A stretch of 64,000 bases of DNA. Source: Mustelus asterias (taxonomy: Eukaryota). This document shows, in pieces, positions 19,401 through 64,000 of the stretch (the first letter of the stretch is position 1; the number at the start of each line of letters is the position of its first letter). The position numbers were made by a program, and so were the translations under genes. The stretch lies in assembly GCF_964213995.1 (NCBI RefSeq), contig NC_135825.1, positions 11,842,001-11,906,000 on the forward strand, in the 5' to 3' direction. The notes under the pieces were generated by a model, which worked only from the letters and a program-made list of their open reading frames with translations, searched no databases and was not told the origin of the DNA.

Positions 19401-22400
19401 CTCGTTAGTTAGAGGGATAGATAGGAGGTTCTGTGGCAGCAAAAGAGACTCACGGATGGTATGTTGCCTACCGGATGCCAAGGTCCGTGACGTCTCAGAT
19501 CGTGTTTTCTGGATTCTTAAGAGGGGAGGGGAAACAGTCACAAGTCGTGGTACACATTGGTACCAACGACGTAGGTAAGAGAAGGGACGGGGATTTAAAA
19601 CAGGAATTTCGGGAGCTGGGCTGGAAGCTGAGAGCCAAGACAAAATATGTGGTCATCTCTGGTACGTTGCTGGTGCCACGTGATAGCGAGTTGAGGAACA
19701 GGGAGAGAGTGCAGTTAAACATGTGGTTGCAGGGATGGTGTAGGAGGGAGGGTTTCAGATACGTGGATAATTGGAACACATTCTGGGAAAGGTGGGACCT
19801 GTACAAACAGGACGGGGTGCACCTGAACCAGAGGGGCACCAATATCCTGGGAGGGAAATTTGATACGGCTCTTCAGGGGGGTTTAAACTAATTTGTCAGG
19901 GGAGTGGGAAAAGGAGTTGTAGTCCAGAAGTCAGTGTTGAGGGTGGTGAGGTATTGGGGAAGGTATCAAGGTCAAGGGTGGGTACCGGTAGACAGGAAGG
20001 TGGGTTGAAGTGTGTCTACTTCAATGCAAGGAGCATCCGGAACAAGGTAGATGAACTTGGGGCGTGGATTGATACTTGGGACTACGATGTTGTGGCCATC
20101 ACAGAGACGTGGGAAGATCAAGGACAGGAATGGTTGTTGGATGTTCCGGGGTATAGATGTTTCAGTAAGTGTAGGGAAGCTGGTAAAAGAGGTGGAGGAG
20201 TAGCATTGTTATTCAAGGATAGTTTAACGGCTGCAGAAAGGCACTTCGAGGGGGATCTGCACACTGAGGGAACATGGGCTGAGGTTAGAAATAGGAAAGG
20301 AGCGGTCACGTTGTTAGGAGTTTACTATAGGCCCCCAAATAGTAATAGAGATGTGGAGGAAGAAATTGCTAAGCAGATTATGGATATGTGTGGGGGTCAC
20401 AGGGTAGTTGTCATGGGGGACTTTAACTTTCCAAATATTGATTGGAACCTTTGTAGGTCAAATAGTTCGGATGGGGCAGTTTTTGTGCAGTGTGTGCAGG
20501 AGGGTTTCCTGACACAATATGTGGATAGGCCGACAAGAGGTGAGGCCACATTGGATTTGGTACTGGGAAATGAACCGGGCCAAGTGTTAGATTTGGTTGT
20601 GGGAGAGCACTTTGAAGATAGTGACCACAATTTGGTGTCTTTTGTTATTGCAATGGAGAGGGATAGGGCCATACGGCAGGGCAAGGTTTACAATTGGGGG
20701 AGAGGTAATTATGATGCGATTAGGCAAGAATTAGGGGGCATAAGTTGGGAACAGAAACTGTCAGGGAAAGGCACAAATGAAAAGTGGAACTTTTTCAAGG
20801 AACAAATACTGGGTGTCCTTGATAGGTATGTCCCTGTCAGGCAGGGAGGAAATGGCCGAGTGAGGGAACCATGGTTCACGAAAGAGGTGGAATGTCTTGT
20901 GAAAAAGAAGAGGGAAGCTTATGTAGGGATGAGGAAACAAGGTTCAGATGGCTCGATTGAGGGTTACAAGTTAGCAAGGAACGAGCTGAAAAAGGGGCTT
21001 AGGAGAGCTAGGAGGGGACATGAGAAGTCCTTGGCGGTTCGGATCAAGGAAAACCCCAAGGCCTTTTACTCTTATGTGAGGAATAAAAGAATGACCAGTG
21101 TGAGGTTAGGGCCGGTCAAGGACAGTAGTGGGAACTTGTGTATGGAGTAAGTAGAGATAGGCGAGGTGATGAATGAATACTTTTCTTCAGTGTTCACCAA
21201 GGAGAGGGGCCATGTTTTTGAGGAAGAGAAGGTGTTACAGGCTAATAGGCTGGAGGAAATAGATGTTCAGAGGGAGGATGTCCTGGCAGTTTTGAATAAA
21301 CTGAAGGTCGATAAGTCCCCTGGGCCTGATGAAATATATCCTAGGATTCTTTGGGAGGCAAAGGATGAGATTGCAGAGCCTTTGGACTTGATCTTTGGGT
21401 CCTCGCTGTCCACGGGGATGGTGCCAGAGGACTGGAGAATGGCGAATGTTGTTCCTCTGTTTAAGAAAGAGAATAGAAATGACCCTGGTAATTATAGACC
21501 GGTTAGTCTTACTTCGGTGGTTGGTAAATTGATGGAAAAGGTCCTTAGGGATGGGATTTACGACCATTTGGAAAGATGTGGATTAATCCGGGATAGTCAG
21601 CATGGATTCGTGAAGGGCAAGTCATGCCTCACAAATTTGATTGAATTTTTTGAGGAGGTAACTAAGTGTGTTGATGAAGGTAGGGCAGTTGATGTCATAT
21701 ACATGGATTTTAGTAAGGCGTTTGATAAGGTCCCCCATGGTCGGCTTATGATGAAAGTGAGGAGGTGTGGGATAGAGGGAAAGTTGGCCGATTGGATAGG
21801 TAACTGGCTGTCTGATCGAAGACAGAGGCTGGTGGTGGATGGAAAATTTTCGGATTGGAGGCAGGTTGCTAGCGGAGTGCCACAGGGATCAGTGCTTGGT
21901 CCTCTGCTCTTTGTGATTTTTATTAATGACTTAGAGGAGGGGGCTGAAGGGTGGATCAGTAAATTTGCTGATGACACCAAGATTGTTGGAGTAGTGGATG
22001 AGGTGGAGGGCTGTTGTAGGCTGCAAAGAGATAGGATGCAAAACTGGGCTGAAAAATGGCAAATGGAGTTTAACCCTGATAAATGTGAGGTGATTCATTT
22101 TGGTAGGACTAATTTAAATGTGCATACAGAGTCCAAGATAGGGTTCTGAAGACTGTGGAGGAAGAGAGAGATTTTGGGGTCCACATCCACAGATCTCTAA
22201 AGGTTGCCACTCAAGTGGATAGAGCTGTGAAGAAGGCCTATAGTGTGTTAGCTTTTATTAACAGGGGGTTGGAGTTTAAGAGCCGTGGGGTTATGCTGCA
22301 ACTGTACAGGACCTTGGTGAGACCACATTTGGAATATTGTGTGCAGTTCTGGTCACCTCACTATAAGAAGGATGTGGAAGCGCTAGAAAGAGTGCAGAGG

Positions 22401-34400: not shown

Positions 34401-37400
34401 CTGTGATATTTAACAATATAGCACCAAACCCTGTAATTCTTGCTGATATGAGTCTGATCCATCACACAAGGGAGCCAATCAAACATGTTAAGCTCTGTCA
34501 AGTGATACTATTTTAATATTTGCTGGGAAGTTAACTCTTGTTGTTCATTACTTTGATTATTTGTGGATATTAATTTTAGTGATGTTTAATGCAGTTCATA
34601 GAATCCCTGCAGTACACAAGGAGGCCATTCGGCCCACCAACCACAATCCAACCCAGGTCCTATCCCTGTAACCCACACAATTTATCCTGATTAAGGGGCA
34701 ATTTAGAATGCCCAATCAACCTAACCTGCACTGACTGTGGGAGAAAACCGGAGCACCCGGAAGAAACCCACGCAAACACGGGGAGAATGTGCAAACTCCA
34801 CATAGACAGTGACCCAAGGTCGGAATTGAACCTGGGTCCCTGGTGCTGTGAGACAGAAGTGCTAACCACTGTACTAGCATGCCACCCATAGACAGAGAGA
34901 GAGAGAGAGAGAGGTATGGTGAGCATCCCACATGACATTTGGTCCGATGCCCTAGAGTTAAAGGAATTGTTAGTCTGAACACATTTGAAGTTCTTGGTCA
35001 GAAAGTTATACAGGCCAAAGATTGGGTTTGTGTCACATGAGTCGGATTATCCAAACTCTGCCCTCTAGCTGTGAGACTCTGCATTGAGTCATAGATCATA
35101 GAATCATAGAAACCCTACAGTGCAGAAGGAGGCCATTCGGCCCATCGAGTCTTTACCAACCACAATCCCAGCCAGGCCCTACCCCCACATATTTACCCGC
35201 TAATCCCTCTAATCTATGCATCTCAGGACTCTAGGGGGCAATTTTTAGCCTGGCCAATCAACCTAGCCCGCACATCTTTGGACTGTGGGAGGAAACCGGA
35301 GCACCCGGAGGAAACCCACACAGACACGAGGAGAATGTGCAAACTCCACACAGACAGTGACCCAAGCTGGGAATCGAACCCAGGTCCCTGGAGCTGTGAA
35401 GCAGCAGTGCTAGCCACTGTGCTACCATGCCGCCCCATTGCTGCGGAGCCTCAGGATATCGGAGCTGTCAATGTTTCCTCGCGGATAAAACATGGAGAAA
35501 CATTTCAATGGAGAATAATAAAGAAAATCATTGAGAAATGTACCATCAATTATTTGTAGTTGTACAGCAAATAATTCATCGAGTCCAGATTTACCAATTC
35601 CACAGCTGTACCATCTTTCATCGCTTGACTGAAGATTCTCCATAGTAACGACAAATATCCCTTGTGAATTGTTATCTGTGATCGACATTCTCCCTCGATG
35701 TCCACCTGGATCATCCGTTCTCACTAAATATGAGCACCCACGACCTGAACCCTGACACCAATATTTCATATTATTGCTGAACTTCTCTGCATCATAGTGA
35801 CAATTTATTGTGATCGATCTTCCCAAAATTCCTGTTACTTTTTCTTCTGCCCTCAATGCACCTGAAACTGAAGAGACAACATTTCAGAAATTGAACTAGA
35901 AATAACTGCTTAAGACAAACAGATCCATTTTGATAGAAGTTCTCGCTGTGTACTGAGGAAACACTTCACCACATCTTCAAATGCAGTGAAATTCCTTCAA
36001 GTTTTTGATACAAGAAAATATTGCGACTTCTCACAGCCTCAGGATGTGACAAAGCATTTCACAGCCAATGATTCACTTCTGAAACTTTTGGGGTATTTTA
36101 ACTTTCTTGATCCGATGGCAGCAGTGGGTGTTGGGAGGGAAAGGGGAACCTTGAAATCAGGATTGTGTCGCATACCGTGAAGATTAACTTCGTTGCGTGT
36201 GTGCGATGTCACTGACTGATTGACCGTCGTGGCTTCCATTTGGGTGGGAACCTTCTGGAGCAGAGCACAGGACCAAATTGGTCTCCATCCATCCCGCAGA
36301 GCGTGGAATGGGGTTGGGTTGCAGAAGGCCAGGGGGTAGGGGTGGATTTGGAATCTGGTTGGATGTGGGGCTGGAGGCCTTGGAGTTGGGCCAGTGATGA
36401 GTGGCTTTGGGAGAATCGTTGAGTTTTGCGGTGGGCAGGGGGGGTGGAAAATGGAGACCCACTGCTTGAGTTGTGGTGTTGCTGCCTTCATGGCTTCACT
36501 CACCCATGAAGATTAGTTCTTGGCCCGTAATTGTTCATTATTTACATGAATGACCTGGAGGAAGGAACAGAATGTAAGGTTTCCAAATTTGCTGATGATG
36601 TGAAGACAGGTGGAAGGGCAGGTTGTGATGAGGATATTGCGATTCTGCAATGGAATATAGAGAGATTGAGTGACTGGGCAAAAACCAGGCAAAATGGATT
36701 TTAATGTGAGCTGGTGTTGAGGTCATGCATTTCGGTAGGAGGAATCAAAAGGCAAGTTATTACCTAAATGGTGAGAGACTGCAGGGGAGTGAAGTAAAAG
36801 TTTTTAAATGTTATTTATTAGTGTCACAAGTAGACTTACATTCACACCGCAATGTGAAAATCCTCTAGTCACCACACTCTGGCCCCTGTTCGGGTACACT
36901 GAGGGAGAGTTGAGCATGGCCACTGCACCTAACCAGCACGTCTTTCAGACTGTGGGAGAATCATAGAAAGCCTACAGAGCAGAAGGAGGCCATTTACCCC
37001 ATCGAGCCTGCACCGGCAATAATCCCACCCTAATCCCTCTAACATGCACATCCCAGGACACCAAGGCACAATTTCGCATGGCCAATCAACCTAACCTGCA
37101 TATCTTTGGACTGTGGGAGGAAACCGGAGCACCTGGAGGAAACCCACGCAGATACGGGGAGAATTTGCAAACTTCACACAGACAGTGACCCAAGCCAGGA
37201 ATTGAGCCCAGGTCCCTGGCACTGTGATGCAACAGTGCTAATCACTATGCCACTGTGACTTGGGTGTTTGAATTACAAAAAGCTAGCAAGCAGGTCCAAC
37301 AAATAGTTAAGAAGGCAAACAGCATTTTGGCATTTGTTGCAAAGGGGTTGGAGTTCAAAAATAGGAGGTTTTGCTGTAATTGTACAGGGTAGTAATGCAT

Positions 37401-44129: not shown

Positions 44130-45324
44130 CCATACACTGTTGCAATCCCAGCTGATGTTACTACTGGACAAGTCAGACCCCAGTTTGATAGATCATAATT
44201 TTTATTTTATGTTTAGATACATGGAAGGCAGCGACTGAACAGAGTCACAGGAGTCAGCTGATGAACTTTTAACCAAAAGAATAAAACATTTATTAAACAA
44301 GAAAAGATGAACTATTTTACACTACTCCTTCACTCCAACTTTACTTCAAGGATACAGACAGGTTCATATAGATAACACACATTACAAAACTATCCTTTAG
44401 CAAAATAAAATCATGATAACATTGGATGCGCTAAAATAAAGAAAAACTCAATCTTATTTACACCAGTGGGTCTCCCTGTCTTCTACCGTTAGAAAGGTCC
44501 ATTCTTCCATCTCAAATCAATGCACAATTTACTGTTGAGAAACTGGTTTCCATTGAGTGAATAACTCAAGTGTCCAATTTCTTACAGAATATTGTTCATG
44601 CGTTTGTGATATTCACAAGCTTAAAAATTAACGCAAAATATATGACAAAAAAGGGAAACAAGAAATCACCTGGTGCAGACAGAAAGAGGGTAAACAGATA
44701 AATTATTCCCAAGATGGAGACAGAGTGACACCAACTAGAAAGTTCCAACCATCATTTTGGATCTTGATTCTTCCTGCAGTAACTTCACGGTCAAAATAAT
44801 TTGATGACAAAATCCACTTTATTGGGTACCATTGGTTAAAATTAATGTTCAAAGCCGGCTGAATAATGAATCTTTGATCAGGAGACAAAATTCCATCAAC
44901 GTAGATGTGAGCTGGGAATCTTCATTTTCCCACATTGGTCGCATTGGGAGCATCGGATTCACTGAGTGACTGGAAAAGAAAATATTTCATGCGTCAGATT
45001 TAAATGCGACAGAGAATAACGCACCATGTTCCATGTCAGTTCTGAACATGGTGTTGGAACTGGCAGAAAATTGAGTCGAAGTTTGTGAGGAACTGGAGCG
45101 ATGTTGCGATCACACTGCTCCCACCACCCCCATCACCCATTGCATTGGTGCTGGGAAAAGGTGCCAGTTATATACCCCCTTGAGGATGTGTGCCGCCATT
45201 TTCTCAAAGGGAACTAATGCTTCCCTGCAGCTGTTGCACAAATGTCAGCAAAAATAACACTGACACGGCAGTTTAATTAAATATATTCCACACCATCCAG
45301 TCAAGCTTCCCGGTAACTATAGCA

Positions 45325-48400: not shown

Positions 48401-51400
48401 ATCTGGGTGTTGTCATGGGGCAAAGACCTCACTATTTTCATAACGTATGAATATTCACATGGCTAACTTCTAAAATTTGAAAAAGTGGACAATGACACTA
48501 TCAAAAATCATTGTATCTCGTTATCTCTGAAGTGACCCTAAGGAACCCCGGTGGGCTGCATCGTCCAAATTCAAAGGGAACCACACAAAGGCCTTTCAAG
48601 TTTCTTAAGACAGACCCAGGACACCCTTCATCAAAGCCAAAGTGGAGGGGTGGGAATCGTGAGACACTGCCATCCCTTCCCCACCCATGCCCCCACTCTG
48701 CCCACTCCCCCTTGGTGCTGGAAGCGGTAATATTACCTTGCGAGTCTGCCATCATTCCATCTACCAAGCAGCAGCATCCCAGTAAAGCATTTCTGTCTGG
48801 GCTTGAATGCCGGGACCCATATACACTGTATCCAGTGGAAAATATGCACCATTTCAGGGAGAGATTAGGAGAAATCTTTGCTCTCAGACGGTCCAAAAAA
48901 TGGTGTTGGAAGAGTTGTCTCTGAATATTTTCAAGGTCGGGGCTGATAGATTCTTGGGAAGCAAACGGGTGAAAGGTTATTTGGGGCAGATTTGAATGTG
49001 GAGTTGAGGATATAGTCTGATCAGCCATGATCTTATTGATGGTGGAGCAGGCTTGAGGGCTGAATGGCCAACGTCTGATTCTAATTTACGTCTTTATATG
49101 TATGCATATTCGTATGAATAAGGAACCTACTTGATTTTCCTACTTGACATCAGTAATGACTCAAAACAAACTCATTATTGGCTGGAAAATATTTTGATTC
49201 ATGCTGACAACATGAATGGATTTATATAAATGTAAGTTTTTTTTACAATATCTGTGATCAATATCTTTGAAAGAATTGGTGGAACAATTCAGATGATGTC
49301 CATAACACCTACCTTAGATTTTCCTGGATACCATGTGACGGTAACAGCACAAATCACCAGGAGAGCAAAGAGTCCCCAGCGAATCACATTCCAGATAATG
49401 TAACTGAGCAAAATGGTAGAAATACAAAGTCATTTGCAGGAAATGAGAATTCATCATGTTTGATGCATTAAGTTGCTATTTACGTGATAATCTTTGTTTA
49501 TTGTAGCACAGACTAGGGATTATAGCGAGAAAATTAAACTGAGGTTGACTAATGAAGGGCGGCACGGTGGCACAGTGATTAGCACTGCTGCCTCACAATG
49601 CCAGGGAGCTGGGTTCGCTTCCTAGCTTGGGTCACTGTCTGTGTGGAGTTTGCACGTCCTCCCCATGCCTGTATGGGTTTCCACCCAGTTCTCCAGTTTC
49701 CTCCCGGAGTCCAAAGATGTGTGGGTTAGGTTGATTGACCATGCAAGATTGACCCTAGTTTCAGGGGGATTAGACAGGAGGGTACAACTCCTCCACGCCA
49801 ACCCCCAGTACGCCTACGTGCAGTACCTGGACGGGCGGGAGGACACAGTATCTATCCGTGACCTAGCGCCCGCAGGTGACTCAGGGACCCCTATAGCCCC
49901 CAACCCTTCACCCCCAACCCCCGACTTTGTCCCTACCATGTCAGAATCACTGCCCACTCCTCTCGCCCGCGAGTACAGCTCGCCTGAGCCCCAGGAGTCG
50001 TCACCACGCACCCGAGGGTTGGATGAAAACACGGATGACAGCTCTGTTCCGGCGCCTGAAACGACACCGCGACCTGAAACCACGTCGGAACCGGTACCAC
50101 AGAGATCGCAGCGGAAGAGCAGGCCTCCGGATAGACTCAATCTGTAAATATTGTTCACTCTGCCTCACCCCTGACGGACTCTTTTTTTTAAACAGGGGGT
50201 GAATGTGGTAAACCACTGTTACATGTTATCTGTCGTGGTTAACCACTGTAGTTAGTATTTCTCAGTACCTGTATATGTGGCACATCCCTGTCGGTTCCGC
50301 CCAAGTCTCCTCCCCCTGGTCTGGGTATAAAGGCGGTGGCTCCTCCCCCTTGCCCTCAGTTCAGACCAGATCACCGACAGGGATGGCTCCAAGTTCTTGC
50401 CAATAAAAGCCTATTTGTCTTGCTCACAACTAGTCTCGGCTCGATTGATAGTGCATCAGAGAGAAAGGTCCACCCCAGAAAAGCAGCAAAACTGGAGCAA
50501 CAGGTCTCTCAGTGAGTGATCCGGATAAACCTCAAGCTCCTGAGGTTTGAGACCTGATGCTGCTCCACCTTTCACCCACAGTCAGTTTTAAAGGATTTGT
50601 GGTGAAAAACCGAGCCTGGGCCCACTGACCCCAGGCTCTGGTGATTGGAGCTGTCTACAACTCCCTCACCCAGGGCCCGGTTGGAGGTTCAGGAACAGCA
50701 CTCCAGTAAACTCCAGCAACACTACACCCCCAAACACCACTGCCTGAAGCTTAGCTCAGTTTGCAGGACAGCTGGTTCGTGATGCAGAGTGATGCCAACT
50801 GCGGGGGTTCAATTACTGAACAGGTTGAAGTTATTCATGAAGGCCCTGCATTCTCAACCCTGCCCCTCACCCGAGGTGTGGTGGTCCTCAGGTAAAATCG
50901 CCACCAGTCAGCTCCCCCTCAAAGGAAGAGCAGCTTATGGTCATCTGAGGCTGTGGTGGTTTTACCTTGAATCAAGATGAATAATGAAAACAGCACCACC
51001 TGAGGGAGAGCAAACTGGAGACATTCACTTCTTCCCCTCATTCCCAGCACCATAAATTGCTCCTTCATTGGGAGGATTGCAACATCATGACACAATTCCT
51101 GCCACCATTTCCATTCTGATAAATTCTACTCTGAAACAGTAAATTATTATAAACAATTACGCTAAAACTTGGAACCATTGATTCTCATTTGAAAGCAATG
51201 CCAATAAAACATCCACAATGGGAACAATGTACCTTTTACTGACAAATGTAGATCCTGAAGATGTGGTTAATGTTGTTGGTGATATGGTTGTTGATATGGT
51301 TGTAAAATCTTCACAAGTATATTTAGGTCCTATTGAGACAGAAGGATAACATTCAGATTCATCCGATTCTCACTCAGTCGACTAAGAAAGCATTCTGCTC

Positions 51401-54400
51401 AAATGGAACCTCAGTATTTGGGAGGATGGATTTGGGTGTTTTAACTATCTCCCTCTCTGGTAGCAAGGAGAGAGGCTGATGACATGTACCGGAGACCCAT
51501 TTTGCTGCTGATTTCTTATCCATCCCACATCTGAGAGTTGTTGGTGCAGCAATGGTGAGTTTCTGTGCCGTATGTTCCCCTTTCCGCCTCGGCTGTTTTC
51601 CTGGCAGTCGGATTTCAATCTGTCCACCATACCATGACCTCATCACTGCGTTACGCCGGGGGGCCATATTTAAACTGCAGCCATGTGCGCACCTCAGTGA
51701 ATCCAATCCACTGAAGACATTGGCCCTGTATTGCTGTGTGTGCTGAACTCCATTGCTGATGCCAGAGTTGGCAGCGCAGGTGCAGACGTTACCCTAGCCC
51801 GTCCTGCAAGACTGCGCCGTTCATTTGAACCATGTCGGAGACTGATCCCAACCTGAATGATAACATTGCAAAGGGGGTGTGAGTGCTTCCACCAGTGATT
51901 GTTCCATGGCGAGGATTCACAAGGAGATTGTACCACTGGTCCAGTCATCCAAATGTTCTAGAATCATAGAAACCCTACAGTGTAGAAAGAGGCCATTCGG
52001 CCCATCGAGTCTACACCGACCACAATGCCACCCAGGCCCTACCCCCATATCCCTACATATTTACCCGCTAATCCCTCTAACCTACCCATCTCAAGACACT
52101 AAGGGGCAATTTTAGCATGGCCAATCAACCTAACCCGCACATCTTTGGACTGTGGGAGGAAACCGGAGCACCCGGAGGAAACCCACGCAGACACGAGGAG
52201 GATGTGCAAACTCCACACAGACAGTGACCCAAGCCGGGAATCGAACCCAGGTCCCTGGAGCTGTGAAGCAGCAGTGCTAACCTCTGTGCTACCGTGCCGC
52301 CCCCCCCCAAAACATTTATTAATTTGCAGTCTCTGCCTGAGGGGTAAAAGATTCAGGAGCGTTTGACGGCCCGTTCGTGCCTCTGGATTCCTTGAGTGGA
52401 AAGATCAGCTAAAGGCCCGACTCCGAGCATAAAGTTAAAGTTTTAATCACAAGTAGGCTTATATTAACAGCGCAATGAAGTTACTGTAAAAATCCCCTAG
52501 TCACCACATTCCGGCGCCTGTTTGGGTACATTGAGGGAGAAGTTAGCATGGCCAATACATCGAACCAGGATGTCTTTCGGACTGTGGGGGGAAACCAAAG
52601 CACCCGGAGGAAACCCACGCAGACACGGGGAGAACGTGCAGACTCCACACAGAGAGTGACCCAATCCGGGAATTGAACCCTGGTCCGTGGAGCTGTGAGG
52701 CAGCTGTGCTAACCACTGTACCACCGTGCATGTCAATGGAGCTGCGATGAACTGTCTGAGCTGTGGAATAATGCTCACTTTCACAGAATTATAGAATCCC
52801 TACTGAAAGTGGGGGCATGTGTTGGTCATTATATCTGAAAAATTAGTTTAAAACTCGAGTATATGTTTACTATTTCCACGATTTACTAAAAGGGTTTGAA
52901 AATTCCTCAGTTCCGTCTGTGAGAGGCAAGCTGTTAGCTGCAAGGAGGCACCCCAAGGGTAAAATCAGCTAGGGTCTAATTCGTAGGCAGGACGTTACAA
53001 GTGTTAGATCTCAAGGTCAATAAAAACAACCTGGCATTGTTCTCCCAATTGATGTGACAACCAAATGGTGTAAGATAACATAATGAGGCAACACTATTTA
53101 CAGCTTAAACATAAGGATTTGTTTGTCTGCCAAACCTCTCTAACTTGAGAGAATTCATCTAATATTAGGGGCCTTGGACATGGGGAGGATAATTGATATC
53201 CCCAAGTCAGACACGAGTTGTTATGTTAAGGACAAATTGTCGCCAGTAGTAAATCAGATGAGACAGCATGTATCAGCATTGAGTATAGAAATTGGCAGGT
53301 GATGCTGCAGCTGTACAGAAACTTAGTTAGGCCTCATTTAGAATATAGAACAGTACAGCACAGTACAGGCCCTTCGGCCCTCGATGTTGTGCGGGGCTTT
53401 GTCCAAAACTAAGAACCTTGTCAGTTCCACTTGTTTTTCACATTCATGTCTATCATTAACAGTCAGCGGTCCCTGACCTCACTTGAAGAGCTATTGCAGC
53501 TCTTCCAGGAGGATTCCAGGCCTCTAGAAATAACACCAGCAATTTTACACCTTTTCCTCAAATGTCTACAGCCCATGAGTCATGACTTGGAAATCCTAGT
53601 GATGAAAAGTTTGAAGCCAGCTACACCTTTCCACTTGCAACTGGCTCCACGGACCGCGAATATGCAAAGTACAACCTGTTCTGCTCGCACTGCTACTCCC
53701 GTGGCACAGTGGTTAGCGCTGCTGCCTCACAGCACCAGGAACCTGTGTTCAATTCCTGGCTCGGGTCACTGTCTGTGTGGAGTCTGCACGTTCTCCCCGT
53801 GTCTGCGTGGATTTCTTCCGGGTGCTCTGGTTTCCTTCCACAGCCCAAAAGATGTGCTGGTTAGATGTATTGGCCATGCTAAATTCTCCCTCAGTGTACC
53901 CAAACAGGCGCTGGAGTGTGGAGACTCGGGGATTTTAACATTGTGCTGCTAATTTAAGCTTGCTTGTGTCAATGATAAATATACTTTTAAACTTTAAACT
54001 CCCAGTGGAAATGGTGGGTGTTGGGTTCGGGAGCTGGGCTTCTGGGGTCAGGGTGCCCGTGCCATTTTAGCTTTACAGTATTCACTCTTTAATCTCCATT
54101 GCCATGCTTTTTTCCTCATAACTAAAATGTCTCAGCCCAGGTTTTTCTTAAGTTCAATTCTTCCAGGTTAGATGTGAGAGGTTACTTTGCACAATTTCAT
54201 TTGTTAGGATTGTTTTTTAATCATGCAATGTGAGCATCACTGGTAAAGTAAGAATTTGTCTCCCAGCTCTAATTGCTTTTAAACTTGCCCGGCCATTTCA
54301 GAGGATATTTAAGCCGCAATCACATTGCTGTTGGTTTGAAGTCACGTGTCGGCCAGACCAGGTGAAAATGACAGATTTCAAGAACAAAAAACAAATAAAA

Positions 54401-57400
54401 TTACTGCACAGGAACAGGCCCTTCGGCCCTCCAAGCCTGCACCGACCATGCTGCCCGACTGAACTAAAACCCCCTACCCTTCCGGGGACCATATCCCTCT
54501 ACTCCCAACCTATTCATGTTTTTGTCTGGCCCCCCCGTAAAAGTCACCATCATATCTGCTTCCACCACCTCCCTTGGCAATGCGTTCCAGGCACCCACCA
54601 CCTTCTGTGTAAAAGATTTGCCTTCTACATTTCCTTTAAACCTTGCCCCTCGCACCTTAAGCCTGTGCCCCTCGTAATTGATTCTTCCTCCTTGGGAAAA
54701 AGCTTCTGACTACTCACTCTGTCCATGCACCTCATAATCTTGCAGATTGCTATCAGGTCACCCCACAACCTTTGTCGTTCCAGTGAGAACAAACAAAGTT
54801 TCTCCAACCTCTCCTCATAGCTATTTCTTACCCTAAAGGGCATTAGTGAACAATTGTTGACATCTTCATGGTTTTCATTACTGATCATAGAACCATAGAA
54901 TCCTACAGTGCAGAAGGAGGCCATTCAGCCCATCGAGTCTGCACTGACCACAATCCCACCCAGGCCCGATCCCCATAACACCATGCATTTACCCTAGCTA
55001 GTTCCCCTGACACTAAGGGGGAATTTAGCATGGCCAATCAACCTAACCTGCACATCTTTGGACTGTGGGAGGAAACCGGAGCACCCGGAGGAAACCCACG
55101 CAGACACGGGGAGAATGTACAAACTCCACACAGGCTGTGGCCCAAGCCGGGAATTGAACCCGGGTCTCTGGCGCCGTGAGGCAGCAGTGCTAACCACTGT
55201 GCCACCGTGCCGCCCATTTGGTGATATTGGCTTTCAATTCCGGATTTATTAATTAATTGAATTTCAATTCCATCAGCTGCCGCGGTGGGATTTGAACCCA
55301 TGCCCCGAGAGCATTAGCCTGGGCCTCTGGATTGCTAGACCAGTGGCATTAGCGCAATGCACTTTCACTCAGGGCAGGCTCAGTCGGCTGAACGACTGGT
55401 TTGTGGTGCAGGGCGATGCCAACAGCACAGGTCCAATTCCCGTACCGGCTGAGGTTATTCATGAAGGCCCCACCTTCTCAACCTTGTCCCTCGCCTGAGG
55501 TGTGGTGACCCTCAGGTTAAGTCACCAGCGGTCAGGTCTCCTCCTTAAAGGAGGAGCCTCTGGTCATCTGGGACTTTACCTTTGCATTATCTCTGAAATG
55601 GGCATTTAGATTTATGCTGCTCAGCAATTAAAAGCTATTTTCATTTCATGGGATGATTGAGTTGCAATATTTATTCATCTTCTGGCAATACTTTTTGATC
55701 CTGTCATTTTCCATGAAAAATGAAAATCAATGATTTTTCAGATTGATAAATAAAATTAACTGGCAACCAGTATGGATGGACATTAATCATAAAAATCATT
55801 AACCCCATTGTTAGTTGAAAGTAACACTTACCAATGCTGCTCTGTATCACATAACTGCAATTCCCAGTTGGATCGAAGACCAACACATTAACCATTTCAC
55901 TGGATTTTTCTCCCTGGTTATTTGAGGCTGTGCAGTAATATTGATGATGTTGCTGTGTGAAGGATTGACAATGTAGATCCAGTTTATTGGTGTCAGAGAT
56001 CTTTGAATCTTCAGACGGGGTCTTTTCATACCATGTGTACTGAATGGGAAGTGATCCCTGGACAGACTCACAGGAGACGGACACTGAGCCCCCAGAACAT
56101 GAGGCATTTGGTGGTGATAGAAATTTAAGTTCAGGAACAGACATTGGTTCTGTGGGGAAGAAACAGACATTCAGACACTTGAGTGAACATCTAAGAATCA
56201 AACAATCTGTGATTTTTATCCCTTCAGCATCTCAGCCAGGGGCGGCCATGTTGGAATCTCACCAGCACATCCACGTCTCCACGGGGGCGAATGCTTAACT
56301 GGGGTTTGTACGTGGGAAGTGTGTTTGTGCTGTCCAGAAAGTTAGAAATACCCAGGAAAGTCGAGTTTGTGCTGAATTTAACAGCAAAATCTGATCAGAA
56401 CTCTTCCAGAATTGAGAGTCTGGCTGGAGTTTCAGCAGAAAAGTCTGTCGTGTAAGATTTGGAATTGGTGGGAGTGTGAGTTCGGGGGTCAGTAGCGAGG
56501 AGGGAATCAGGGAGGCTTTATTGGTTGGGGCAGAGTTAGCCAATCATGGGGGTGGGGGGGGGCGGGGGGGCGGTGATTGTACAATATATTTGCCTGGGGG
56601 CCAGGGTGAAGCACTCCTGTGCCCCAGGGACCCGAATCCGTGTTGGAAAAGCTGCTGGACCCATCAAGTCCCACCGCCATGAACACATTGGAGAGTTTGG
56701 TCCTGTACTGCTGTGTGTGCTGAACTCCATTGCTGCTGCCCTAGTTGGCAGCTCAGGTGCAGACATTCCCCTAGCCCGTCCTGCAAGTCTGCACCCTTCG
56801 CTTGAACCATGAGGCAGACTAACCCAAACCTGAATGTGAAACATGTCGTGCTGAGGTCATGTTGGTGAGGGTGGTATATTCACCGTGTGGGGATGATCCC
56901 AATGGCAGGCATGATGATAAGGTGCAAATGGATTAAAATTACGTTCTCGCCATTTGACTAAACCAGACTGATTTTTAACCATTCCGCCATATTTTCCGTT
57001 CACGATGCCAAGCGCGCCCATTACCAACTCCGCACAGTTCCTCTTCTGGCCACTGCTGTGTTGTTGCTGCAGGAACTGGATAGTTGTCAGCCAATCAGAT
57101 TAGACTCTCCAAGGCAGACTCCCTCCGGAGCGAGGGGCGGATCTCTCACCCAATAAGAATCAGCACACATACGAGCGTTAAATGACATCACGCTATCCCA
57201 AAAATTCAGGCCCCCGGATCCTGTTAAATTCTGTCGATTGATTCTATTTTATTATATTTGAGGGAATTATACCAGAAGGTACAACTGGCTCTTAACTATT
57301 TGTCCTTTTGTTTTAATCTAAAAACAAACACCTGACAGTGTGACAAGTTGGTCAGTCCATGAATTGGGTTTGTGGGAGGCAGATTTCCCCAACTTTGCCC

Positions 57401-60400
57401 TCTGAGGGGAGCTGGTGGCGTGGTGGTATTGTCACTGATCTAGTAATCCAAAAAACCCAGGGTAATGCTCTGGGGACCTGAGTTCGAATCCTGGCACGGC
57501 AGATGAATTTGAATTCACTAAAAATCTGGAATAAAAAGTCTAATGATGACCAAGGAACAATTGTCATAAAAACCCAACTGGTTCACTAATGCCCTTTAGA
57601 GAAGGAAATCTGCCATCCTTCCCTTATCTGGCCTACATGTGACTCCAGATCCACAGCAATGTGGTTGAATCTTAAAATGCCCTCAGGGATGCTACTAATA
57701 AATGTTGGCCCAGCCAGTGATGCGCACATCCCATGAATCAATGAAAAAACAAGCTGCCAGACTCTGCACTGCAGTGGATCCTCGGGATACCGGAGCTGTC
57801 AATGTTTCCTTCCAGAGAAAACCATGGCCTGAATTTTTCGCTCATCATGTGTGTGCACTCAGCGAGTCTGGACGCGGGTACGAAACCTCAGCCCCGAAGC
57901 GCAGTTCCACACTGGCTGTCCAATGAATGGGGGAAGAGCCACTGTGGAGCTGTCTCAGGGAGCTGTTGACCTGTGAAAAATATCAATGTTAAAACGATAC
58001 CGCGAGTGTCAGGGCAGCACGATCACACACACAGCTTAGGCCCCAGACACATTTCTTACTTTAATATGAACCCTGACCTTTCATTCCGCCCTGGATCGAG
58101 GTTGCAGCTAAAATGTAAAGGTCACCTGGCCAATTGGCCCACCCGCCAACTGTAAAGGCAGACGGGCAACTTAAAGTCCTGGACAATTGGTGTTTAATGA
58201 ATTTAAATTGACTTTTGCATGGCTGGCAGCCGCACTTCCGACTTGCGCATGTGCCTGGCGACTGAAATATTGAGAGAAGGCATATTGCCGTCGGGGTGTG
58301 ATTTTACCCACATTCGGGTAGGGCACACGCCTGATCTTTATACATAAAATTCTGGCCATTGATCAGAGATTTCAGTCAAGAGTAATAAAGATAATCACTG
58401 AGAATAACGCACCGTTAGATATTTGTAGGTTTACGTTATACAATGGATCGAGACCGGATGCTTCAATTCCACAGCTGTACCATCCTGCATCTCCTGAGCG
58501 AAGATCCTTCATAGTGACAACAAATACTCTTCGTGACTTGTTATCTGTGATTGATATTCTTCCATTTTGCCAATTTGTCTTTGCTACAACATCACATTGG
58601 CGATTCCAGCCGCGACACCAATATTTCACGTGTGACCGGTACCACACACCATAGTGACAATCGATTGTGATCGATCTTCCCACAATTCCTCTCACTTCCT
58701 CTTTTGCCCACAATGCACCTGAAACTGAGGAGACAACATTTCAGGAATTGAACAGGGAATAATTGCTTCATTCAAACAGACCCATTCTAATGAGTTAAAT
58801 TCCATGCAGCTTGTGATGAAAATAAACATTAATATAGACATTTATCACAGTCTCAGAGTGTCAAAAGCATTTCTGTCAATTATTAATTTAAAAAAATATT
58901 TGATGTATTTTCCTGAACCAATGACAGGGGCTGGGGGAGCAGGGATGGGGGGCGGGGGGGCCTGGAAATTGGGGTTCTGCCTCACATTGTGGGCCTTCAC
59001 TCCAGAGTGTGATTGTGAGACATCATCAAGAGGTTTCAGACCCAGAAACAAACCTAATTGACGGGTCCAACTTGCAGTTAGTTGGGGAGCAGCCCGGAGG
59101 AGATGACAGGAGCAAAGAGGTCCTTGATCTGACCTGAGAGGTGGTGTAGGCAGTAGGGATGGGATGTGACTCACACATTAAATCCTGGCAGGAGGGGGGT
59201 TTTCAGATCTTGGGTGGGTTTGGGATTTCAGGAGGTGAAGATTGCCGACCTCGGTGATGGTGCACGGGATTGGTGGCCTTGGAGGATGGCTGGAGGTCTT
59301 AGGTAACAATTTAGATGCCTGCTGAGAAGGAGACTGGAAACCTGGGGAGGTTTGGATGACTTAGGGGAAATGGAGGCCTGGGTTTGGGCCATGGGTGGCC
59401 TGGGGGGACATGAGACCCCTTGGAAGGATGGCAATGGAACGACGGGTGTATGGACAATTTGAAAGCATGTTTTGTTGGAGGTGATGCAGATTTCATGGGG
59501 AGGTCAGGTGACAAATTGTAATGATTGGGGCGGTGAATGGGTTCGCATCAAGTGGGAGTTGGGCAGTGTAACAAATCTGCGGAGGCAGAAGTCCCTTCAC
59601 CAAAATCCCTTTATTTACAATTCCAACAGCAGTACACAGGGTGCTTTCTGTCAGCAGTCTACCTTCGGGAGTGCCAGAGTGATGCGCAATTAAATCACTC
59701 GGGAGGCTAGATTGTACCTGGGAAATAAAGGCTTTTATTACTGACAAGAATGGAGCACACTATACACAATACAATTCCAGACTAAAGGGTCACCAGGCAG
59801 TGCAGTGACCTTTATACTTCCCCTGGTAGGCGAAGCCAACTGGAGTGTACCACAGAACAATATCAACAGGTAGAACAGCCCAACCCTAACACCAACAGTA
59901 ACTACAGTAACATATCTACAAACACCCATAGTGCTGACCATCCATGGCTCAGCACTCATAGTGGTAACCAACTATGGTTCACCACATTCACCCCTCCTTT
60001 AAAACAAAGGCCGGCGGGGCTAAAAAAAACAGAACAACTGTTCATATATTCACAAGTTCAGTCGTATTGGAGGACCGCGGTAACGTCGGTTCTGGTAACC
60101 GTGGTGACCTTCTCTCCAAGGCGGTGTCCAGTGACTCCTCCAGTTCCTCACGGACAGGTGGACCACGAGGTGGCGACAATCTGCTGGACTCGAGCACGCC
60201 TCGAGGTGGTGACAATCTCCTGGACTCAGGCAAGCTGTACACGGGAGTAAGAGGATTAAGTGGTGGTCCCGATACTGCCCGCGCCGTGTCAGGAGGGGAG
60301 ATAAGGGTCGGGGGGTCCCTAACTAGGGGTGTGGAAGCGACTGCGGTTTCCAAGTCCCCTGCAGGCGCCAGATCTCTAATAGAGACCATGTCTTCTCGCC

Positions 60401-63400
60401 CGTCAGGATATGCCACATAGGCATATTGAGGGTTGGCGTGGAGGAGATGGACCTGTTCAACCAAAGGGTCGGACTTGCGGGTCCTAACATGCCGCCGCAG
60501 GAGGACAGGTCCTGAGTGCGTCAACCAAGACGGTAATGAGGTCCCAGAGGAAGAGTTCCTAGGGAAGGAAAACATCCTCTCATGTGGAGTAGCGTTGGTT
60601 GCCGTACACAGGAGTGAGCAGATAGAATGGAGCGCATCAGAGAGTACCTCTTGCCAACAGGAGACTGGAAGACTTTTAGACCTCAATGCCAGTAAGACAG
60701 CCTTCCAGACTGTAGCATTTTAATCATGCAATGTGAGCATCACTGGTAAAGTAAGAATTTGTCTCCCAGCTCTAATTGCTTTTAAACTTGCCCGGCCATT
60801 TCAGAGGATATTTAAGCCGCAATCACATTGCTGTTGGTTTGAAGTCACGTGTCGGCCAGACCAGGTGAAAATGACAGATTTCAAGAACAAAAAACAAATA
60901 AAATTACTGCACAGGACAGGCTCTTCGGCCCTCCAAGCCTGCACCGACCATGCTGCCCGACTGAACTAAAACCCCCCACCCTTCCGGGGACCATATCCCT
61001 CTACTCCCAACCTATTCATGTTTTTGTCTGGCCCCCCGTAAAAGTCACCATCATATCTGCTTCCACTATCTCCCTTGGCAATGCGTTCCGGGCACCCACC
61101 ACCTTCTGTGTAAAAGATTTGCCTTCTACATTTCCTTTAAACCTTGCCCCTCGCACCTTAAGCCTGTGCCCCTCGCAATTGATTCTTCCTCCTTGGGAAA
61201 AAGCTTCTGACTACTCACTCTGTCCATGCACCTCATAATCTTGCAGACTGCTATCAGGTCACCCCACAACCTTTGTCGTTCCAGTGAGAACAAACAAAGT
61301 TTCTCCAACCTCTCCTCATAGCTATTTCTTACCCTAAAGGGCATTAGTGAACAATTGTTGACATCTTCATGGTTTTCATTACTGATCATAGAACCATAGA
61401 ATCCTACAGTGCAGAAGGAGGCCATTCAGCCCATCGAGTCTGCACTGACCACAATCCCACCCAGGCCCGATCCCCATAACACCATGCATTTACCCTAGCT
61501 AGTTCCCCTGACACTAAGGGGGAATTTAGCATGGCCAATCAACCTAACCTGCACATCTTTGGACTGTGGGAGGAAACCGGAGCACCCGGAGGAAACCCAC
61601 GCAGACACGGGGAGAATGTACAAACTCCACACAGGCTGTGGCCCAAGCCGGGAATTGAACCCGGGTCCCTGGCGCCGTGAGGCAGCAGTGCTAACCACTG
61701 TGCCACCGTGCCGCCCATTTGGTGATATTGGCTTTCAATTCCGGATTTATTAATTAATTGAATTTCAATTCCATCAGCTGCCGCGGTGGGATTTGAACCC
61801 ATGCCCCGAGAGCATTAGCCTGGGCCTCTGGATTGCTAGACCAGTGGCATTAGCGCAATGCACTTTCACTCAGGGCAGGCTCAGTTGTCTGAACGACTGG
61901 TTTGTGGTGCAGGGCGATGCCAACAGCACAGGTCCAATTCCCGTACCGGCTGAGGTTATTCATGAAGGCCCCACCTTCTCAACCTTGTCCCTCGCCTGAG
62001 GTGTGGTGACCCTCAGGTTAAGTCACCAGCGGTCAGGTCTCCTCCTTAAAGGAGGAGCCTCTGGTCATCTGGGACTTTACCTTTGCATTATCTCTGAAAT
62101 GGGCATTTAGATTTATGCTGCTCAGCAATTAAAAGCTATTTTCATTTCATGGGATGATTGAGTTGCAATATTTATTCATCTTCTGGCGATACTTTTTGAT
62201 CCTGTCATTTTCCATGAAAAATGAAAATCAATGATTTTTCAGATTGACAAAAAAAAATAACTGGCAACCAGTATGGATGGACATTAATCATAAAAATTAT
62301 TAACCCCATTGTTAGTTGAAAGAAACACTTACCAATGCTGCTCTGTATCACATAACTGCAATTCCCAGTTGTATCGAAGACCAACACATTAACCATTTCA
62401 CTGGATTTTTCTCCCTGGTTATTTGAGGCTGTGCAGTAATATTGATGATGTTGCTGTTTGAAGGATTGACAATGTAGATCCAGTTTATTGGTGTCAGAGA
62501 TCTTTGAATCTTCAGGCGGGGTCTTTTCATACCATGTGTACTGAATGGGAAGTGATCCCTGGACAGACTCACAGGAGACGGACACTGAGCCCCCAGAACA
62601 TGAGGCATTTGGTGGTGATAGAAATTTAAGTTCAGGAACAGACATTGGTTCTGTGGGGAAGAAACAGACATTCAGACACTTGAGTGAACATCTAAGAATC
62701 AAACAATCTGTGATTTTTATCCCTTCAGCATCTCAGCCAGGGGCGGCCATGTTGGAATCTCACCAGCACATCCACGTCTCCACGGGGGCGAATGCTTAAC
62801 TGGGGTTTGTACGTGGGAAGTGTGTTTGTGCTGTCCAGAAAGTTAGAAATACCCAGGAAAGTCGAGTTTGTGCTGAATTTAACAGCAAAATCTGACCAGA
62901 ACTCTTCCAGAATTGAGAGTCTGGCTGGAGTTTGAGCAGAAAAGTCTGTTGTGTAAGATTTGGAATTGGTGGGAGTGTGAGTTCGGGGGACAGTAGCGAG
63001 GAGGGAATCAGGGAGGCTTTATTGGTTGGGGCAGAGTTGGCCAATCATGGGGGTGGGGGGGGCGGGGGGGCGGTGATTGTACAATATATTTGCCTGGGGG
63101 CCAGGGTGAAGCACTCCTGTGCCCCTGGGACCTGAATCCGTGTTGGAAAAGCTGCTGGACCCATCAAATCCCACCGCCATGAACACATTGGGTCCAGAGT
63201 TTGGTCCTGTACTGCTGTGTTTGCTGAACTCCATTGCTGCTGCCCTAGTTGGCAGCTCAGGTGCAGACATTCCCCTAGCCCATCCTGCACGTCTGCACCC
63301 TTCGCTTGAACCATGAGGCAGACTAACCCAAACCTGAATGTGAATCATGTTGTGCTGAGGTCATGTTGGTGAGGGTAGTATATTCACCGTGTGGGGATGA

Positions 63401-64000
63401 TCCCAATGGCAGGCATGATGATAAGGTGCAAATGGATTAAAATTACGTTCTCGCCATTTGACTAAACCAGACTGATTTTTAACCATTCCGCCATATTTTC
63501 CGTTCACGATGCCAAGCGCGCCCATTACCAACTCCGCACAGTTCCTCTTCTGGCCACTGCTGTGTTGTTGCTGCAGGAACTGGATAGTTGTCAGCCAATC
63601 AGATTAGACTCTCCAAGGCAGACTCCCTCCGGAGCGAGGGGCGGATCTCTCACCCAATAAGAATCAGCACACATACGAGCGTTAAATGACATCACGCTAT
63701 CCCAAAAATTCAGGCCCCCGGATCCTGTTAAATTCTGTCGATTGATTCTATTTTATTATATTTGAGGGAATTATACCAGAAGGTACAACTGGCTCTTAAC
63801 TATTTGTCCTTTTGTTTTAATCTAAAAACAAACACCTGACAGTGTGACAAGTTGGTCAGTCCATGAATTGGGTTTGTGGGAGGCAGATTTCCCCAACTTT
63901 GCCCTCTGAGGGGAGCTGGTGGCGTGGTGGTATTGTCACTGATCTAGTAATCCAAAAAACCCAGGGTAATGCTCTGGGGACCTGAGTTCGAATCCTGGCA
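45325..64000 (-). CDS. Gene B (5'-partial, multi-exon): activating-type paralogue, [leader, V outside window]-C2-V-C2-stalk-TM(Arg)-short tail
   Basis: Exons 62650-62333, 58724-58413, 56149-55832, 51329-51233, 49403-49313 and tentatively 45411-45325. GT-AG and phase compatible. No leader exon found in the window. Confidence 0.78.
45960..46242 (+). mobile_element. Penelope-like element 3' end with degenerate hammerhead
   Basis: CTGGCGAAGGAGCAGCGCTCCGAAAGCC...ACCAAATAAACCTG-TGGACTTTAACCTGG, the same terminal sequence as the hairpin elements. Confidence 0.65.
46872..47606 (+). mobile_element. Solo LTR
   Basis: TG...CA ends, exact CATC target-site duplication, internal AATAAA. It interrupts a MITE-like repeat. 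Confidence 0.8.
49313..49403 (-). CDS. Gene B transmembrane exon with charged Arg (NxxR)
   Basis: ccattttgctcag|TTACATT...TCTAAG|gtaggt. SYIIWNVIRWGLFALLVICAVTVTWYPGKSK. Confidence 0.87.
49557..49775 (+). mobile_element. HE1-type V-SINE, 3'-truncated and fused to a Gypsy remnant
   Basis: Head and V-domain present, then an abrupt switch to integrase codons. Confidence 0.8.
49776..50458 (+). mobile_element. Gypsy-like LTR retrotransposon 3' remnant: integrase C-terminus, PPT and 3' LTR (50204-50458)
   Basis: VQLLHANPQYAYVQYLDGREDTVSIRDLAP. Purine tract AAACAGGGGGTGAA, then TG...CA LTR containing TATAAA and AATAAA. Confidence 0.85.
51233..51329 (-). CDS. Gene B mucin-like stalk exon
   Basis: ctcaatag|GACCTAAA...AGTAAAAG|gtac, 97 nt. 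GPKYTCEDFTTISTTISPTTLTTSSGSTFVSK. Confidence 0.85.
51958..52303 (-). mobile_element. HE1-type V-SINE
   Basis: Reverse-complement match to the other copies. Confidence 0.88.
54380..54825 (-). mobile_element. CR1/HER1 3' fragment (duplicated at ~60883-61326)
   Basis: [24 protein letters not shown] plus CR1 tail. Confidence 0.8.
54886..55215 (-). mobile_element. HE1-type V-SINE (duplicated at ~61387-61716)
   Basis: Reverse-complement match to the other copies. Confidence 0.88.
55832..56149 (-). CDS. Gene B IgC2 exon
   Basis: cccacag|AACCAATG...AGCATTG|gtaagt. [41 protein letters not shown]...[10 protein letters not shown]. Confidence 0.92.
58413..58724 (-). CDS. Gene B IgV exon (CD300/pIgR type)
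   Basis: ctcctcag|TTTCAGGTGCATTGTGG...TCTAACG|gtgcgt, 312 nt. VSGALWAKEEVRGIVGRSITIDCHY...KYWCRGWNRQC...DAGWYSCGI. Confidence 0.92.
59680..60718 (-). mobile_element. Gypsy-like LTR retrotransposon 3' remnant: integrase, PPT and 3' LTR (59680-59986), cut at the duplication junction
   Basis: WQEVLSDALHSICSLLCTATNATPHERMF...LLHANPQYAYVAYPDGRED. PPT AAAGGAGGGGTGAA; TG...CA LTR. Confidence 0.88.
60718..64000. repeat. Recent tandem duplication, copy 2 (truncated by window end), of ~54215-57496
   Basis: Near-identical colinear sequence at offset ~6501-6504, including the CR1 fragment, HE1 SINE and C2 exon. Confidence 0.95.
62333..62650 (-). CDS. Gene B duplicated IgC2 exon (upstream copy)
   Basis: 318 nt with intact acceptor and donor; three nucleotide differences from 55832-56149. 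Confidence 0.85.

Follow-up and report, generated by a model that had tools for sequence, protein, structure and literature searches.

A probable microhomology-associated tandem duplication of V and C2 exons in a shark modular domain immune-type receptor gene

The receptor gene and its predicted product

The window analyzed here is a stretch of 64,000 nucleotides (nt) from Mustelus asterias (G000:C25:11842001-11906000; genome size 3.68 Gb). Coordinates above 64000 continue the window numbering along contig C25. The window contains, on the minus strand, the larger part of a gene which by every feature tested at the sequence level is classed as a modular domain immune-type receptor (MDIR). Eight minus-strand exons, all with AG/GT splice sites and matching phases, form an open frame of 510 amino acids (aa) without a stop, for which the architecture leader-V-C2-V-C2-stalk-transmembrane (TM) segment with arginine-short tail is predicted. 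The leader exon (72146-72110) and the membrane-distal V exon (65228-64917) are located in the continued coordinates. The latter is open and lies where the original prediction, made from the window alone, had placed a second V exon (~64.9-65.2 kb). It is followed by the membrane-distal C2-type immunoglobulin (Ig) exon (62333..62650, 318 nt, phase 1-1, AG/GT intact), the membrane-proximal V-set Ig exon (58413..58724, 312 nt, phase 1-1, PF07686, four cysteines, CD300/pIgR-like), which has a second in-frame acceptor 6 nt inside, and the membrane-proximal C2-type Ig exon (55832..56149, 318 nt, phase 1-1, PF13927). A Ser/Thr-rich stalk exon (51233..51329, phase 1-2), a TM exon (49313..49403, phase 2-0) with an arginine near the N-terminal end of the segment and a short cytoplasmic tail exon (44922..44969) with the stop codon and no tyrosine complete the gene.

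The splice sites of both V-C2 units are canonical and identical. The two V exons are 99% identical, differing at three sites (one Ile/Val change, two silent), while the C2 exons also differ at three sites, all of which change a residue. The 312-nt V and 318-nt C2 exons bear out the earlier claim that the phases are in frame. BLAST searches with the cluster's own exons revealed no homologue of a leader, stalk, TM or tail exon between 62333 and 58724, as had been claimed for leader, stalk and TM, and the sole hydrophobic frame in this interval is situated inside a long terminal repeat (LTR). A separate gene fed by its own leader or promoter at the V exon at 58724 was thus rejected.

The spliced product is identical to residues 540-1049 of the NCBI model XP_078098057.1 (labelled 'Fc receptor-like protein 5 [Mustelus asterias]'), in which the doubled cassette is already present. 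As a single gene, this model of 1049 aa was rejected. It is regarded as a fusion of two genes, the upstream gene g3 and the gene studied here, since the TM (81890) and tail (79393) exons that belong to g3 are left out of it and the leader of the studied gene is read through (span 72110-112208).

Two features of an activating paired receptor, a basic TM residue and a short tail without a tyrosine motif, were detected, and the activating-type TM segment proposed originally holds at the DNA level. According to PMC3031540, a short tail together with a charged TM residue marks stimulatory receptors. The motif W-N-V-I-R-W is kept in all 12 activating-type TM exons of the cluster. For the partner side, two PF11628 adaptor TM exons with an aspartate are present in the genome, one on C275 (L072:5056-5148), which we take to resemble FcR-gamma, and one on C17 (L071:5226-5312), which presumably resembles CD3-zeta. 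A 2014 paper (PMC4016189) states that no FcR-gamma had been found in sharks.

The duplicated unit, its breakpoints and the Gypsy element

By self-BLAST of the window, 54215-57496 and 60718-64000 matched with 98.8% identity over 3286 nt, which corresponds to the almost exact repeat described originally. In the continued sequence, the full unit reaches 67254. The lower copy (54215..60721, 6507 nt including both TTTT ends) comprises part of the post-C2 intron, the C2 exon, the V exon and the 3' part of a Gypsy element. The upper copy (60718..64000 in the window, on to 67254) follows head to tail and contains the V exon 65228-64917. Between the copies, 57 substitutions (37 transitions, 20 transversions) and five gaps were counted in 6504 aligned columns, a divergence of 0.88%.

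All three breakpoints have a 4-nt TTTT microhomology in common. The left edge (54215..54218) reads ..TTGTT-TTTT-AATC, the junction (60718..60721) ..GTAGCA-TTTT-AATC and the right edge ..GTAGCA-TTTT-CTCG. At the junction, TTTT links sequence of the Gypsy integrase with the post-C2 intron, just as the original prediction had described a fusion over a short T microhomology. A microhomology of at least 4 nt is expected by chance with a probability of ~1.6%. The 300-nt flanks of the breakpoints share no further homology (21-22% ungapped identity), and unequal crossing-over between repeats was rejected as the cause of the duplication because these flanks are unrelated. A 30-mer across the junction occurs only once in the genome.

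The right breakpoint falls within the integrase of a Gypsy element which resides in intron 1 and is oriented like the gene. Its pol region, with the order protease-reverse transcriptase-RNase H-integrase, continues in the next stretch, where the rest of the element had been expected, to about 70114 and is interrupted by one stop. A polypurine tract and a 3' LTR (about 59680-59986, minus strand, with TG..CA ends) were read from the sequence, so that features of a Ty3/Gypsy LTR retrotransposon are present, while a second LTR was not found within 65900-72300. The fragment that came to lie in the new C2-V intron (59680..60721, minus strand) comprises the end of the integrase, the polypurine tract and the 3' LTR. 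It may be regarded as a passenger, one breakpoint having probably fallen inside an element that was already present in intron 1.

Taken together, we consider it likely, with a probability of roughly 0.8, that a 6.5 kb segment with a V and a C2 exon of this shark MDIR gene was tandemly duplicated, probably by a microhomology-mediated event, and that the gene now encodes a leader-V-C2-V-C2-stalk-TM receptor, which is likely to be activating via an adaptor with an immunoreceptor tyrosine-based activation motif (ITAM). Since no longer homology exists at the breakpoints, template switching at TTTT, or end joining there, may have given rise to the duplication. As both exons have phase 1-1, the copied cassette is predicted to splice C2 to the second V in frame. 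The TM arginine would pair with the aspartate of an ITAM adaptor of the FcR-gamma/CD3-zeta type, a rule given in PMC3031540. The two V domains are near-identical, with one conservative change, and the C2 domains differ by three changes. The doubled ectodomain might for this reason have a longer reach or a higher avidity towards one and the same ligand, and not a new specificity.

Authenticity, transcript and age of the duplication

A duplication of this kind could also result from two haplotypes that were placed in tandem during assembly. A divergence of 0.88% would be a possible size for alleles of a polymorphic immune locus, and among the listed pieces there is no contig that spans the junction. 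To this, read depth can be set, which was taken from the assembled contigs of four public runs (X1-X4) over 55600-61300. Of more than 56,000 pieces, the listing covers the longest, and depths are contig means. X1 and X2 come from one sample, possibly the one that was assembled, though the assembly process has no influence on their depth. In the model, the mean word depths of three contigs inside the unit were compared with that of one contig likely crossing the left edge. If two real copies exist, the implied haploid depth is 12.8, 12.0 and 12.8 inside versus 11.1 at the edge for X1, and 7.7, 7.4 and 7.5 versus 6.9 for X2. A false duplication implies 25.7, 24.1 and 25.6 versus 15.0 (X1), and 15.3, 14.8 and 15.0 versus 9.3 (X2). 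The depth inside the unit is thus 1.6-1.7 times what an artefact permits relative to the edge contig, and the best fit over the four contigs was obtained with two copies on both haplotypes. X1 contigs also carry alleles of both copies. Moreover, the assembly is without N in the first 202 kb, the sole gap in the 758 kb of C25 that were mapped for exon types being at 484896, so that no gap lies near the repeat. The junction is a new join with microhomology, half of it in a Gypsy element, which haplotypes set side by side would not produce. An assembly artefact is therefore very improbable. Contig depth fits two real copies and not a false haplotype duplication, and the duplication is likely real. 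In X1 and X2, the depth check called for by the original prediction came out in favor of two copies.

Several observations weigh against the interpretation given above. No contig spanning the junction was found among the listed pieces of X1-X4, and the listed contigs at 60718 (one each in X1 and X2) break off at this point and probably correspond to the left edge. Contigs break at the high-copy Gypsy element, and the Gypsy side has a depth of more than 100,000. The C2-to-V exon joint occurs in none of the listed contigs of X1-X4, which cover introns and no exon joints. The depth model is based on four contigs per run and takes 308 unaligned letters of the edge contig as left flank. A model with the duplication on one haplotype gave at best 15.0-15.9 versus 12.7 for X1 and 9.0-9.3 versus 7.9 for X2. 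Within the unit, a tract of 1163 nt (window 56874-58036) is identical between the copies where ~10 differences are expected (P=0.0003), and it is likely the product of gene conversion or recombination. Derived changes are distributed unevenly, with 20 in the upper and seven in the lower copy and one tie at 28 sites with an outgroup (p=0.02), a polarity obtained with weak outgroups, 29 of the 57 sites being without one. From the identical tract and the uneven changes it follows that the history was not a clean single event with even drift afterwards. Finally, the new intron contains four sense AATAAA signals (62176, 61751, 59739, 59615), two of them within LTR pieces, and some transcripts could terminate early at these signals.

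The last observation leads to the question of the transcript. It is conceivable that the duplication is real, but that the main transcript skips one unit or terminates at one of the poly(A) signals of the sense LTR pieces in the new intron, resulting in a secreted V-C2 form. Since every V and C2 exon has phase 1-1, the frame would survive skipping, and the four sense signals lie in the new intron. On the other hand, the splice sites of both units do not differ from each other or from the canonical form, intron 1 already contains this LTR upstream of the first V, and the intronic signals recur after the last C2. In addition, the MDIR5 and MDIR3 proteins of skate include C2-to-V joints. We regard a predominantly skipped or secreted form as rather unlikely, and transcription of the complete V-C2-V-C2 form is preferred.

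The remaining irregularities could be accommodated if the duplication were real but segregated as a copy-number variant, with V-C2 and V-C2-V-C2 haplotypes and with copies that exchange sequence by gene conversion or recombination. The contig depths are also compatible with a duplication on one haplotype, the listed X4 contigs carry upper-copy alleles at every informative site covered, and X3 shows a mixture of alleles along with five letters that match neither copy. The identical tract and the uneven derived changes would be explained as well. However, the model with two copies on both haplotypes fits the four contigs best, and X3 and X4 are of low depth (3-10) and their contigs keep one path per bubble, so that copies cannot be counted from them. 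Such a polymorphism, which is compatible with the tandem duplication favored here, is possible, at odds well below even.

The age of the duplication can be approximated by the mutation rate of the epaulette shark, for which PMC10587355 gives 7e-10 per site per generation (95% confidence interval 1.4-14.1e-10). At this borrowed rate, 0.88% corresponds to ~6.3 million generations (3.1-31 million). The designation of the event as recent, which was part of the original prediction, thus holds in a relative sense, in comparison with most cassette pairs in the cluster.

The MDIR gene cluster and comparison with known receptors

Exon-type mapping revealed 19 leader-to-tail MDIR-type genes on both strands of C25 at 11.85-12.59 Mb (continued 10172-744850), with one to 11 V-C2 units each. 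An arginine-containing TM exon is present in 12 of them, an uncharged TM segment with a long tail in the other seven. Thirteen of the 19 possess at least two units (2, 3, 6, 7 or 11), and the exact V-C2-V-C2 order with an activating-type TM segment was found in five, the gene studied and g7-g10. Gene g16 is alike but has an extra partial C2 match. The C2 exon has 55 matches in the genome, every one of them at 11.87-12.58 Mb of C25. The cluster also contains larger duplications, blocks of 28-36 kb at 99.3-99.7%, which are as young or younger. The nearest V exon belongs to the single-unit inhibitory-type gene g19 (94.8%), followed by that of the activating-type gene g3 (94.4%), and the V of the studied gene groups with g19, though the tree fork g2+g19 has a modest support of only 91/80.

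Some further observations concern the cluster and its surroundings. The genes g6-g10 are assembled as five tandem copies of 35-37 kb with ~99% identity (continued 265087-439190). They have the same ectodomain, to which an inhibitory-type TM segment and tail are joined in g6 and activating-type ones in g7-g10. The last C2 exon of g3 (84460) is without the usual phase-1 donor and g3 may be defective. A stop was detected in V4 of g5 (202424) within a full-length exon match, while apparent V stops in g16 and g18 were not counted, the exon matches being 1 nt short and the stops likely due to offsets. Leader-like exons that are not followed by a V-C2 gene of their own occur at continued 112208, 244651 and 551141. 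In the window, a neighboring single-unit inhibitory-type gene (10172-40302, minus strand) has its leader at 40302, V at 35861, C2 at 32016, a stalk at about 24449, a TM exon at about 18740 and two tail exons. Frames for an endonuclease and a reverse transcriptase of the type of long interspersed nuclear elements lie on the plus strand (19864-22146) with one stop between them, and a partial copy of this element (96.5%) was found at continued 181834-183405.

Because receptors of this shape have already been described in skates and are frequent in the cluster itself, the event is an ordinary one, a tandem duplication of the V-C2 module within an MDIR cluster. Neither a new receptor architecture nor a new mechanism is involved. 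The original prediction of recent exon-cassette shuffling with a doubled ectodomain holds at the DNA level, but its implied novelty was too high in view of the MDIR5 architecture and the cluster-wide duplication. The locus stands out only by the two breakpoints of the step from one to two units, which can still be read. A paper on the duplication was not found in a literature search that missed most subscription papers; MDIRs are named in PMC3031540. As a worked example of ectodomain-length change in shark MDIR genes, the locus offers readable breakpoints and a simple copy-number marker for the polymerase chain reaction. Its wider value lies in the cluster, 19 genes with one to 11 V-C2 units and mixed signaling types, to which automatic annotation has given diverse labels and which it has here fused across genes. 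It is possible, though less likely than not, that the event represents the seeding step of a growing domain array, in which a microhomology-mediated jump from one to two units would precede unequal crossing-over to the three to 11 units of neighboring genes. The receptor affected would be the activating partner to an inhibitory receptor of one unit whose V exon is 95% identical, and differences in receptor length might still segregate in the species and adjust activation against inhibition.

The best sequence matches of the V domain to solved structures were pIgR and CD300f (E 1e-19, single-domain CD300f); TREM2 was matched, too. That of the C2 domain was FCRL5. Mammalian CD300 (CMRF35-like) proteins have one V domain, and pIgR has five V domains without C2. 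Neither alternates V and C2 as the studied gene does. A CD300/pIgR/TREM-like V domain is described as a likeness of MDIRs in PMC3031540. Public models name the cluster genes FCRL5, pIgR-like, titin-like or uncharacterized; of these, 'FCRL5' and 'pIgR-like' were assigned by NCBI automatically and need not indicate orthology. In humans, SARG (C1orf116) neighbors PIGR/FCAMR. SARG was located on C25 at 20.66 Mb, 8 Mb from the cluster. Closer synteny found no support from further markers, OTU1 being on C7, IL10 having no match in the genome and EBP50 and Tweety not being on C25.

Homologues were analyzed among 120 listed of 136 matches, a set restricted to longer proteins and hence biased towards multi-domain forms. 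Most of them are automatic models, which can fuse genes as XP_078098057.1 does. V-C2-V-C2 was detected in 29 of the 120, four of which have an activating-type TM segment (two of epaulette shark, one of Heptranchias and MDIR5 of skate). At least two V domains occur in 78, and in 17 of these a V pair is at least 95% identical, 12 of the 17 being from other species. Within the cluster, g7-g10 (about 292-430 kb, continued) share the architecture and the TM arginine with the studied gene. Their V pairs are 81% identical and belong to other V subtypes, and they were multiplied as whole genes of 36-37 kb at 99.3-99.7%.

The two clearnose skate proteins MDIR3 (ABC86797.1) and MDIR5 (ABC86800.1) are among the listed homologues. 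MDIR3 and the inhibitory-type genes of the cluster are likewise built from repeats of these V and C2 modules, but have an uncharged TM segment and a long tail with tyrosine motifs, both of which are missing in the gene studied. MDIR5 is the closer counterpart, with 56% identity over 510 columns and colinearity from the leader to the TM segment. The proteins have in common the order leader-V-C2-V-C2-stalk-TM, the motif W-x-V-x-R-W and a short tail, and the colinear part takes in the C2-to-V joint, read as VSGALW. What separates them is a longer stalk in the studied gene and the similarity of the V pair, which is 70% in MDIR5 and 99% in the gene described here. The doubling in Mustelus asterias is therefore either a separate, younger event than that in MDIR5 or has been homogenized.

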